From Escherichia coli (GTDB taxonomy: Bacteria; Pseudomonadota; Gammaproteobacteria; Enterobacterales; Enterobacteriaceae): a stretch of DNA of 64,000 nucleotides. Shown here one piece after another: positions 16,355-52,220 of the stretch; positions within the stretch are counted from its first letter, which is position 1, and each line of letters starts with the position of its first letter. Made by a program: the position numbers and the translations under genes. The stretch lies in the NCBI RefSeq assembly GCF_050920415.1, contig NZ_CP169309.1; one strand, given 5' to 3'. Under the pieces are notes generated by a model, which saw nothing but the letters and a program-made list of their open reading frames with translations, searched no databases and was not told the DNA's origin.

Positions 16355-16362
16355 AAATACAG

Positions 16363-16388
16363 GGCTGGAGTCATCCGGCCCTTTTTTC
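16363..16388 (+). terminator. Rho-independent terminator after dapA-bamC
   Basis: Hairpin GGCTGGA-gtca-TCCGGCC followed by CTTTTTTC. Confidence 0.55.
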
Positions 16389-16397
16389 TGATATGAT

Positions 16398-16413
16398 ACG
16401 CAAACGTGTGCGT
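16398..16413. promoter_or_regulatory. PurR operator (PUR box) upstream of purC
   Basis: ACGCAAACGTGTGCGT matches the 16-bp palindromic PurR box consensus ACGCAAACGTTTGCGT. Confidence 0.7.
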
Positions 16414-16459
16414 CGGCAGAAAAATGCGATTTTGGCGGTAATTCGCACGAAATTTGTTT

Positions 16460-16500
16460 GTCGGACGTAGGGCGGATAAGGCGTTCTTGCCGCATCCGAC
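16460..16500. repeat. REP (repetitive extragenic palindromic) element
   Basis: GTCGGACGTAGGGCGGATAAGGCGTTCTTGCCGCATCCGAC, typical E. coli REP palindrome. Confidence 0.7.
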
Positions 16501-16566
16501 AAAACATCCGGCACACCAGACAGCAAAAGATTTTAAAACGTTAATTCACACCCAGGAGTGATAAAG

Positions 16567-17280
16567 ATGCAAAAGCAAGCTGAGTTGTATCGTGGTAAAG
16601 CGAAAACCGTATACAGCACGGAAAACCCGGACCTGTTGGTGCTCGAATTCCGCAATGATACGTCAGCAGGGGATGGCGCGCGCATTGAGCAGTTTGATCG
16701 CAAAGGTATGGTGAACAACAAGTTCAACTACTTCATTATGAGCAAACTGGCTGAAGCGGGTATCCCGACTCAAATGGAGCGTCTGCTCTCCGATACCGAA
16801 TGTCTGGTGAAAAAGCTGGATATGGTGCCGGTTGAGTGTGTCGTGCGTAACCGTGCTGCTGGCTCTCTGGTGAAACGTCTTGGAATCGAAGAAGGTATTG
16901 AGCTGAACCCGCCGCTGTTCGATCTGTTCCTGAAAAACGACGCCATGCACGATCCGATGGTCAACGAATCTTACTGCGAAACCTTTGGCTGGGTGAGCAA
17001 AGAGAATCTGGCGCGTATGAAAGAGCTAACCTACAAAGCGAACGACGTGCTGAAAAAACTGTTCGATGATGCTGGTCTCATTCTGGTCGACTTCAAGCTG
17101 GAGTTTGGTCTGTACAAAGGCGAAGTGGTTCTGGGCGATGAGTTCTCCCCGGACGGCAGCCGCCTGTGGGACAAAGAAACGCTGGAGAAAATGGATAAAG
17201 ACCGTTTCCGCCAGAGCCTCGGTGGCCTGATCGAAGCCTATGAAGCCGTTGCCCGCCGCCTGGGTGTACAGCTGGACTGA
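16567..17280 (+). CDS. purC: Phosphoribosylaminoimidazole-succinocarboxamide synthase
   Basis: Starts [31 protein letters not shown]; 237 aa. Confidence 0.95.
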
Positions 17281-17447
17281 TTTTTCTATTCATCATCTTG
17301 CCGTGCTGCTGGCACGGCAAGACAACCGCGCTCATAAGATGTGCATTGAACGCTCATTCCTCCGCCATTTCATTCCGCTTTCCTGTGGTAATCTTCCTCT
17401 GAACCACCTACGATCATTTCTATAATGAATATATTGTTGAGGTATCT

Positions 17448-18311
17448 ATGCGTTGGCAAGGGCGACGTGAAAGTGACAATGTTGAAGACAGGCGCAATAG
17501 CTCCGGTGGTCCGTCAATGGGCGGTCCCGGTTTCCGTCTGCCAAGCGGTAAAGGCGGGCTGATTTTACTGATAGTCGTGCTGGTTGCAGGCTACTATGGC
17601 GTTGATTTAACTGGGTTGATGACCGGACAGCCGGTTTCCCAACAGCAATCAACGCGGTCAATTAGCCCAAATGAAGACGAAGCCGCAAAATTCACCTCGG
17701 TGATTCTGGCAACCACCGAAGACACCTGGGGACAGCAGTTCGAGAAGATGGGTAAGACCTATCAGCAACCGAAGCTGGTCATGTACCGTGGAATGACGCG
17801 CACCGGCTGCGGGGCGGGCCAGTCCATTATGGGGCCGTTCTATTGCCCGGCGGATGGCACGGTTTATATCGATCTCTCCTTCTATGATGACATGAAAGAC
17901 AAACTTGGCGCGGATGGCGATTTTGCCCAGGGGTACGTTATCGCCCATGAAGTCGGTCATCATGTGCAGAAACTGTTAGGCATCGAGCCGAAAGTCCGTC
18001 AACTGCAACAAAACGCGACGCAGGCGGAAGTGAACCGCTTATCTGTACGTATGGAACTCCAGGCCGACTGTTTTGCCGGTGTCTGGGGGCATAGCATGCA
18101 GCAGCAAGGCGTTCTGGAAACCGGCGATCTGGAAGAAGCGCTGAACGCGGCGCAGGCCATCGGCGATGACCGTTTACAGCAGCAAAGTCAGGGGCGAGTC
18201 GTACCAGACAGTTTCACTCATGGCACTTCTCAGCAACGCTACAGCTGGTTTAAACGTGGTTTCGACAGCGGCGATCCGGCACAATGCAATACTTTTGGTA
18301 AAAGCATTTAA
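17448..18311 (+). CDS. ypfJ: Predicted zinc metalloprotease (neutral zinc metallopeptidase family)
   Basis: 287-aa ORF with HEVGHH zinc-binding motif and N-terminal TM segment. Confidence 0.9.
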
Positions 18312-23425: not shown

Positions 23426-23458
23426 GAAAAAGGCGACACATTGGTATGTCGCCTTTTT
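23426..23458. terminator. Bidirectional rho-independent terminator (ypfM / acrD convergent)
   Basis: AAAAAGGCGACA-cattggta-TGTCGCCTTTTT: GC-rich stem flanked by A-run and T-run. Confidence 0.75.
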
Positions 23459-34576: not shown

Positions 34577-35527
34577 TTATAGTTTGACGGCAAGAAGATC
34601 TTCCAGTTTGCGTTGATCAACGGCGAACAGGCGGATGCCTTCAGAGAGTTTTTCTACCGCCATTGCATCCTGATTGTGCTCCCAACGGAACTCCGCTTCG
34701 CTCATCGGGGCTGGGCGTGGGAACGTCTGAGAAGGCGGGATTAATTTACGCACTACTGGAGAAACTTTTTCCTGCAGCTCCTTCAGCAAATTCGGCGCAA
34801 TAGTCAGTCGATCACAGCCGGTTAAGGCGAGGATTTGTTCGGTGCGACGGAAGCTCGCGCCCATTACAATGGTTTCGTAGTGGTGTTGCTTATAGTAGTC
34901 GTAGATATTGCGCACTGACTTAACGCCCGGATCTTCTTCCACCACATACGGGTCCATCGGCTTACGCGCCTGATACCAGTCATAAATACGCCCGACAAAC
35001 GGCGAAATCAGAAAAACGCCTGCTTCTGCACAGGCCCGCGCCTGAGCAAAAGAAAACAGTAGCGTCAGGTTGCAGTTAATACCTTCTTTTTCCAGTTCTT
35101 CTGCCGCGCGAATTCCTTCCCAGGTTGAAGCCAGCTTGATCAGAATACGTGATTTCTCAACGCCTTGTTGCTGATACAGGTCCACCAAATGGCGCGCCTT
35201 CTCAATACTTTTTTCTTTATCAAAAGAGAGGCGTGCATCAACTTCTGTTGACACGCGACCGGGTACGATTTTGAGAATTTCAGTGCCGAAATTGACCGCC
35301 AGTTTGTCACATGCAGCGACCACCTGTTGTTCCTGGGTCTTGCCATTTTTTTTACCCCAGGCGATAGCATCGTCTATTAAATGCTCATATTGTGATAATC
35401 CGGCAGCCTTGAGTAACAGCGAAGGATTGGTGGTGGCATCCTGGGGATGATAATGGCGAATGGACTCAATATCACCACTGTCTGCCACGACAGTGGTGAA
35501 CTGTTTGATGCCGTCTAACTCGTTCAT
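34577..35527 (-). CDS. talA: Transaldolase A
   Basis: 316-aa ORF starting [21 protein letters not shown]. Confidence 0.95.
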
Positions 35528-38112: not shown

Positions 38113-38146
38113 CGCTTACCCTGAATATTCAGGGTAAGCGGTTTTA
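38113..38146 (+). terminator. Rho-independent terminator of maeB
   Basis: Perfect 13-bp inverted repeat CGCTTACCCTGAA-tat-TTCAGGGTAAGCG followed by GTTTT. Confidence 0.8.
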
Positions 38147-52175: not shown

Positions 52176-52220
52176 CCTGTCGGAGGTGCCGGGTGTCCTA
52201 CAACACCCGGCATTAACATC

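Follow-up and report, generated by a model that had tools for sequence, protein, structure and literature searches.

What does a perfect and strong hairpin do directly after the stop codon of purC in E. coli, when no U-run follows it? The question is raised by a stem-loop in the spacer between purC and ypfJ, in a stretch of E. coli DNA of 64,000 nucleotides (contig NZ_CP169309.1) that is referred to here as the window. The initial annotation, which was made from the letters of this DNA, offered three readings of the stem-loop: an mRNA-stabilising 3′ hairpin, the start of the ypfJ leader, or a degenerate terminator.

The purC-ypfJ locus

The gene order in the window is dapA-bamC-purC-ypfJ-tmcA on the plus strand, as given by the open reading frame list and by the RefSeq annotation of identical loci. 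The window is 100% identical over the query to E. coli strain MFDS1022581, and the region is found in 5,425 of 5,426 complete E. coli genomes. Window positions were mapped to MG1655 by anchoring on the 3′ end of the bamC terminator (NC_000913.3 position 2597798 = window 16387); on this map the start and stop of purC land on 2597618 and 2596905, and there are no indels relative to K-12 in the region. The purC transcription start site at 2597781 (Yan et al., 2018) corresponds to window position 16404. The features on both sides of purC are as follows.

16361–16387, plus strand: bamC intrinsic terminator, hairpin and T6, from the terminator scan; directly upstream of the purC promoter
16398–16413, plus strand: PurR box ACGCAAACGTGTGCGT, with 1 mismatch to the consensus ACGCAAACGTTTGCGT; overlaps the purC start site at 16404
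16567–17280, plus strand: purC coding sequence, 237 aa, TGA stop included in the coordinates (open reading frame list and RefSeq; MG1655 2597618–2596905)
17421–17426, plus strand: TATAAT, candidate −10 hexamer of ypfJ, from the sequence only
17448–18311, plus strand: ypfJ coding sequence (open reading frame list and annotation)

The spacer from the purC stop to the ypfJ start consists of 167 untranslated nt, and its last part before ypfJ, at 17416–17440, is AU-rich. We also note that the purC promoter is tightly packed against the bamC terminator, with the T-run ending at 16387, the PurR box at 16398–16413 and the start site at 16404. The 5′ UTR of purC is furthermore about 100 nt longer in Escherichia, with the PurR box at −169 versus about −67 in other genera, and a REP-like palindrome within this additional sequence, at about 16462–16502, gives a weak, sub-threshold match to the Rfam naRNA4 model (E = 0.017).

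A stable stem-loop that lacks a U-tract

The hairpin at 17297–17321 reads CTTGCCGTGC-tgctg-GCACGGCAAG and begins at the 17th nt past the TGA stop (17278–17280). It has 10 perfect pairs, 7 of which are G-C, and can be extended by an 11th pair, T17296·A17322; within the loop a U17307·G17311 pair is possible, which would leave a loop of 3 nt.

17281–17285, plus strand: T5 run that abuts the purC stop, 5′ of the hairpin; kept in both E. coli alleles
17297–17306, plus strand: left arm CTTGCCGTGC, from sequence and folding; invariant in all 11 E. coli sequences read
17307–17311, plus strand: loop TGCTG, polymorphic, being AGCTG in K-12 and TGCTA in strain CUWW06
17312–17321, plus strand: right arm GCACGGCAAG, from sequence, folding and alignment

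The folding energy calculation that the initial annotation had suggested gives −18.1 kcal/mol for the 25-nt hairpin and −20.0 kcal/mol for the 27-nt form. The hairpin is retained in both the MFE and the centroid structures of the 81-nt and the 267-nt contexts, and the fold of the 81-nt context has a z of −3.17, being equalled by 2 of 200 shuffles. Sequence and folding thus confirm the 10-bp stem and its distance from the stop codon exactly as they were first described. Perfect hairpins of at least 10 bp with a loop of 3–8 nt occur at five loci in the window, as compared to 0.23 ± 0.42 in 30 dinucleotide-preserving shuffles, and therefore the purC hairpin is not a product of chance. As to the four other such hairpins, the one at 23427–23458 is flanked by A5 and T5, as a bidirectional terminator would be, and corresponds to a 3′ end at 2590726 in Adams et al. 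(2021), the one at 38113–38140 is followed by GTTTTACT, and those at 35472–35499 and 52187–52212 are, like the purC hairpin, without a U-run.

With 10–11 bp and −18 to −20 kcal/mol the hairpin has the GC-rich stem-loop of a canonical terminator. The plus-strand tail past the stem is CAACCGCGC, with 0 U in 9 nt, and the sequence 5′ of the hairpin, TTTTTCTATTCATCAT, is not A-rich. The T-run, TTTTT at 17281–17285, lies as first pointed out 5′ and not 3′ of the hairpin. The terminator scan flagged the bamC terminator at 16361–16382 and did not flag the purC hairpin, and the earlier judgement against a canonical intrinsic terminator is borne out by the tail. The minus-strand tail, AUGAUGAAUAG..., has no U-run either, and there is no convergent gene, which led us to reject a minus-strand terminator. 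We likewise rejected a small open reading frame of 34 aa with a TTG start at 17298–17402, which lies within an allele-swapped segment and has no ribosome-binding site that could be seen upstream. The covariance models of Rfam 15 gave no match overlapping 17297–17321 at E ≤ 10.

Published transcript 3′ ends

A 3′ end of purC at the hairpin is already catalogued in a public dataset, where it is listed without discussion. This is the SMRT-Cappable-seq study of K-12 by Yan et al. (2018), in which one TTS row reads 'NC_000913.3 2596861 2597781 reverse 88 58 19 8 1077 novelTTS NA NA b2476'.

17324, plus strand: 3′ end of the purC-only primary transcript ('novelTTS', NC_000913.3 2596861; Yan et al., 2018), 3 nt past the stem

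When this row is mapped onto the window, the purC-only transcript spans 16404 to 17324 and starts inside the PurR box. Transcript 3′ ends thus do map to the hairpin, and the absence of such ends, which the initial annotation had named as refuting it, does not hold in these data. To be called a TTS by Yan et al. (2018), an end needed 10 reads or more and had to exceed random ends 200-fold. As poly(A) was trimmed and ends within 5 bp of each other were collapsed onto the one lying furthest 3′, the end at 17324 is accurate to about ±2 nt. SMRT-Cappable-seq retains any 5′-triphosphate fragment, however its 3′ end arose, and for this end it cannot separate termination from processing.

We read columns 6 and 7 of these rows as the numbers of reads that end and that read through, a column meaning that we infer; applied to the row of the bamC terminator it gives 197/(255 + 197) = 44%, which equals the value stated for M9 medium in the preprint. 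If the columns are read in this way, the counts for the purC hairpin are 58 ending and 19 passing reads, corresponding to about 25% read-through into ypfJ with a mean extension of 1077 nt, which reaches just beyond ypfJ, and the share of primary transcripts from the purC promoter that end at the hairpin is about 66–75%. Yan et al. (2018) also name a 'dapA-ypfJ operon', and polymerase therefore does pass the purC hairpin. We accordingly delimit purC as a transcription unit that runs from 16404 to about 17324 and is partly read through into ypfJ, which mostly tidies the annotation.

The bamC terminator is seen by both methods, with Term-seq 3′ ends at NC_000913.3 2597798/9 and a SMRT-Cappable-seq TTS of the 'terminator' type at 2597797. 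For purC the two differ, and the 3′-end mapping to which the initial annotation had looked thus gives an end at 17324 by SMRT-Cappable-seq and lacks one in the Term-seq data of Adams et al. (2021). Their curated ends, a sparse list, include none between 2590726 and 2597798 on the same strand in three conditions, one of which is M63 glucose; expression of purC is expected in M63 glucose, yet there is no end at the hairpin, which is a discrepancy with Yan et al. (2018). Adams et al. (2021) list no region of Rho termination within 2590726–2597798 either, including the part near 2,596,700–2,596,899, in ±bicyclomycin data from LB, a medium in which purC is repressed. The supplements of Adams 2021, TERMITe 2025, the 3′-stem-loop preprint and RhoTermPredict have no entry for purC or ypfJ, and a literature search for purC with terminator, Rho or bicyclomycin found nothing relevant.

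Variation within E. coli

In E. coli the spacer between purC and ypfJ exists in two forms. Among 5,426 genomes, 3,805 have the hairpin allele, while 1,619 have an allele in which about 820 bp with the vapBC toxin-antitoxin (L002 667–1496) replaces the 67-nt segment 17289–17355. This vapBC allele has another hairpin at the same place after purC, TTTAGCCGGAG-ggta-CTCCGGCTAAA. A mobile-element origin of the 67-nt segment was rejected, as no plasmid or phage relatives were found and two 'plasmid' matches were mislabelled chromosomes of 4.9 Mb. Membership of REP/BIME or of another repeat family was rejected as well, since the hairpin occurs in exactly one place per genome in the 3,805 genomes and has no relatives in plasmids or phages.

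As far as the sequences tell, variation across the 3,805 genomes is seen in the loop and the flanks and not in the stem. One of two 39-mers, with the loop as their sole difference, is present in 3,718 of them: the K-12 39-mer (loop AGCTG) is exact in 2,067 genomes, and the 39-mer of the window (loop TGCTG) is found in 1,651 at 99% identity or more, a count in which not all matches are full-length and some miss the last base. In the remaining 87 genomes, the single member examined has the loop TGCTA. When 10 E. coli sequences picked to span the identity classes were compared, none of the 20 stem columns varied as opposed to 13 of 46 neighbouring columns (p = 0.006); set against the whole purC-ypfJ spacer (17 of 147 columns) the difference was not significant (p = 0.23). 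In E. albertii, C17306 is changed to T, and the RNA of the plus strand retains a U·G pair. As a separate matter, polymorphic sites cluster at 17327–17344 just 3′ of the hairpin, where E. coli strains differ by as much as about 8% over 83 nt; between these strains purC and the ypfJ-proximal part of the spacer are nearly identical.

Hairpins after purC in related genera

We find that each of 25 further purC-ypfJ loci from related genera has a strong hairpin 8–24 nt past the purC stop. The 9-nt tails of these hairpins contain 1–7 U, so that they range from a canonical hairpin with a U-run to U-poor forms, and Escherichia is the poorest in U. In the 60 nt that follow them there are on average 17 C and 8 G. 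The hairpins of Enterobacter, Leclercia, Pseudocitrobacter and Pluralibacter form an alignable family in which 6 of 11 pairs show compensatory two-sided changes, and 88% of the cells are paired as compared to 40–52% when the partners are slid; this covariation was measured on the sister-clade, Enterobacter-type family, the Escherichia hairpin being unalignable outside Escherichia.

17356–17366, plus strand: ATTCCTCCGCC, an orphan arm that aligns to the right arm of the Pseudescherichia purC hairpin; right boundary of the segment swapped with vapBC
17386–17415, plus strand: block TGGTAATC...AACCACCTACGATC upstream of ypfJ, from alignment; nearly invariant in 16 genera

The alignment of ATTCCTCCGCC to the Pseudescherichia arm is collinear with the block upstream of ypfJ, and the vapBC allele keeps a GCCGGAG/CTCCGGC hairpin that resembles the one of Pseudescherichia. 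On account of this orphan arm and of the Pseudescherichia-like hairpin in the vapBC allele, the hairpin of the window appears, as judged from the alignments, to have taken the place of an older hairpin in this one lineage and not to reflect a loss. The hairpin sequence has been replaced several times, giving the Escherichia type, the vapBC-allele or Pseudescherichia type and the Enterobacter type. A hairpin and a C-rich spacer are always kept while the sequence is not, which is the pattern expected if selection sees structure.

The block upstream of ypfJ, which can also be written TGGTAATC...AACCRCCTACGATC, has the form TGGTAATC-N8-AACC(A/G)CCTACGATC across 16 Enterobacteriaceae genera, and in the alignment of these genera the purC hairpin is an Escherichia-specific insertion upstream of 17386–17415. 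Conservation of the block goes far beyond that of a typical sigma-70 promoter. A role of the palindrome as a transcription-factor operator for ypfJ was rejected, as the block is invariant in 16 genera and the palindrome is confined to Escherichia.

A 3′-end-defining stem-loop as the best explanation

Downstream of the hairpin the untranslated spacer has a composition of its own.

17323–17420, plus strand: C-rich, G-poor, weakly structured, untranslated stretch (rut-like), from composition and folding

The 78 nt from 17322 contain 26 C and 12 G, which is the 98.2nd percentile of all 78-nt windows on both strands, and the best 78-nt window for C over G starts at 17344 and reaches the 99.7th percentile. 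The spacer 3′ of the hairpin folds with −11.9 kcal/mol (z = −0.21) and is essentially unstructured. The C-rich stretch overlaps the conserved block upstream of ypfJ, and its C-richness could have other causes.

We favor, with moderate confidence, the explanation that a monocistronic purC mRNA has its 3′ end set and protected by the stem-loop, probably after Rho-dependent termination downstream of the latter. Transcription from the PurR-controlled purC promoter would run past the stop codon and the hairpin, where RNA polymerase would stay on, as the absence of a U-tract would give no release. Most transcripts would then terminate in the untranslated, C-rich, G-poor and unstructured spacer or in early ypfJ, with Rho as the most likely terminating agent, and 3′-to-5′ exonucleases would trim them back to the stem of about −20 kcal/mol, leaving a sharp end about 3 nt past it. 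A minority of the purC transcripts, perhaps a quarter, would escape and continue through ypfJ. Of the three readings offered at the outset, the mRNA-stabilising 3′ hairpin is thus the one that fits best, by its end 3 nt past the stem and by flanks that resemble a Rho-type gene end. The degenerate terminator holds in an evolutionary sense only, in that the hairpins of the relatives extend from canonical terminators with a U-run to U-poor ones.

Other explanations

The main alternative, possible but unlikely, is that no termination occurs in the spacer, and that purC and ypfJ are co-transcribed and then cut by an endonuclease, e.g., RNase E, in the AU-rich region at 17416–17440, after which exonucleases trim back to the hairpin. 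The hairpin would in this case be an intercistronic stabiliser that makes the purC mRNA longer-lived than that of ypfJ. Read-through transcripts and a named 'dapA-ypfJ operon' do exist, SMRT-Cappable-seq keeps 5′-triphosphate fragments whatever made their 3′ end, and the evidence for an exonuclease barrier fits equally. Cleavage would, however, have to be very efficient for about 66–75% of the primary transcripts to end at one site, and the strong excess of C over G in the unstructured sequence after the hairpin would be left unexplained.

The mapped end itself, within about 3 nt of the stem for most reads from the purC promoter, could also be taken to mean that release of RNA polymerase needs the hairpin alone, perhaps with NusA or NusG, and no U-tract; at the same position other genera have canonical terminators. 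We consider such a non-canonical intrinsic terminator doubtful. Intrinsic termination in E. coli releases the transcript 7–9 nt past the stem, within the U-tract, while the purC end lies at +3, to about ±2 nt, and its 9-nt tail has 0 U; the tail ACAACCGCG is G+C-rich and would therefore give a stable RNA:DNA hybrid. Classical intrinsic termination is unlikely because of the missing U-tract and the end at +3. Still less probable is a terminator that is genuinely independent of a U-tract and releases two-thirds to three-quarters of the purC-promoter transcripts about 3 nt past the stem, perhaps aided by a factor or by the ribosome terminating 17 nt upstream, and the evidence of this analysis argues against it.

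We give only a very slight chance to a palindrome that acts in the DNA without a role in RNA, either as a protein-binding site or as a scar of the rearrangement that produced the vapBC allele. The symmetry is perfect, the flanks are unusually polymorphic, and the palindrome sits in the 67-nt segment 17289–17355, which is exchanged whole from one E. coli allele to the other. On the other hand, it is single-copy without plasmid or phage relatives, its sequence is not conserved beyond Escherichia, unlike the neighbouring ypfJ block, and in other lineages the place is taken by hairpins of unrelated sequence that show compensatory changes. A transcript end has been mapped at the palindrome, and the E. 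albertii substitution breaks the DNA symmetry while retaining the RNA pairing. Finally, the initial annotation's start of the ypfJ leader, or any part in ypfJ regulation, is scarcely credible, for although the hairpin, 127 nt ahead of the ypfJ start codon, is included in read-through transcripts, the sequence that genera share ahead of ypfJ starts only about 65 nt past the hairpin, and the Escherichia-specific hairpin is absent from other genera and swapped out in 30% of E. coli genomes with the ypfJ upstream block intact.

PurR boxes after purC in other Enterobacterales

Independently of the hairpin in E. coli, many Enterobacterales have a good PurR box that begins exactly 2 nt past the purC stop, before the terminator hairpin, and reads ACGCAATCGTTTACGT or ACGCAAACGATTACGT. 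It is found at about positions 2217–2232 of the loci L021, L024, L025, L029, L030, L037, L040, L043, L044, L047, L050, L052, L057, L058 and L065, a box with 4 mismatches is present in L045, L032 and L034, and in Rahnella (L042 and L073) the box is at +25 and +26. The genera include Cedecea, Mangrovibacter, Pectobacterium, Brenneria, Photorhabdus, Yersinia, Budvicia and Proteus. The chance expectation for such boxes is about 0.02 across all loci.

Among the loci with a post-stop box whose upstream region was examined, no PurR box was found within 240 nt upstream of purC (the best had at least 5 mismatches), and the species with the upstream box (Escherichia, Citrobacter, Enterobacter, Erwinia) are without the post-stop box. 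Both occur only in Shimwellia (L032), with 2 mismatches in the upstream and 4 in the post-stop box. LacI is known as a roadblock at the end of lacI. By analogy, it is an idea that PurR at the post-stop box could act as a roadblock at the 3′ end and give rise to a non-stop or unprotected purC mRNA. The post-stop box is potentially more interesting than the purC hairpin itself.

Comparison with known systems

One comparison is with the bamC terminator 930 nt upstream, which is likewise a GC-rich stem-loop a few nt past a stop codon, with −16.4 versus −20 kcal/mol. In bamC, T6 follows right after the stem and the 3′ end lies in the U-run, whereas in purC the 9 nt after the stem contain 0 U and the end is at +3. 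REP/BIME elements act as intercistronic stabilisers that block 3′ exonucleases, e.g., between malE and malF, and belong to a multi-copy family with a consensus. They are similar to the purC hairpin as we read it, in that a stem-loop that blocks exonucleases stabilises the upstream cistron of a read-through transcript, but the purC hairpin is single-copy and of unrelated sequence. At trp t/trp t′ of the E. coli trp operon the mature mRNA end is reportedly found at a hairpin, with Rho-dependent termination further downstream followed by 3′ trimming. The scheme proposed here for purC has the same elements, an end at the hairpin, Rho termination downstream and exonucleolytic trimming, with the difference that trp t is said to be followed by some U and the purC hairpin by none.

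The closest likeness is to the Rho-dependent transcripts described by Dar and Sorek (2018), which have sharp steady-state ends right after stable stem-loops, reduced U, no upstream A-tract and an excess of C over G downstream, and whose stems protect from PNPase and RNase II. At purC, too, a stable stem-loop just past the stop codon lies immediately upstream of the steady-state 3′ end, the U content after the stem is reduced, no A-tract precedes it, and C exceeds G downstream, a skew that is shared by the 25 related loci. The likeness of purC to the class of Dar and Sorek (2018) is one of sequence anatomy and of the mapped end, and a dependence on Rho and exonucleases is presumed for purC. A strong hairpin without a U-tract just past a stop codon is hence better read as a protector of the 3′ end than as a failed terminator, and the purC hairpin looks like an ordinary stem-loop of this known class at a probable Rho-type gene end.
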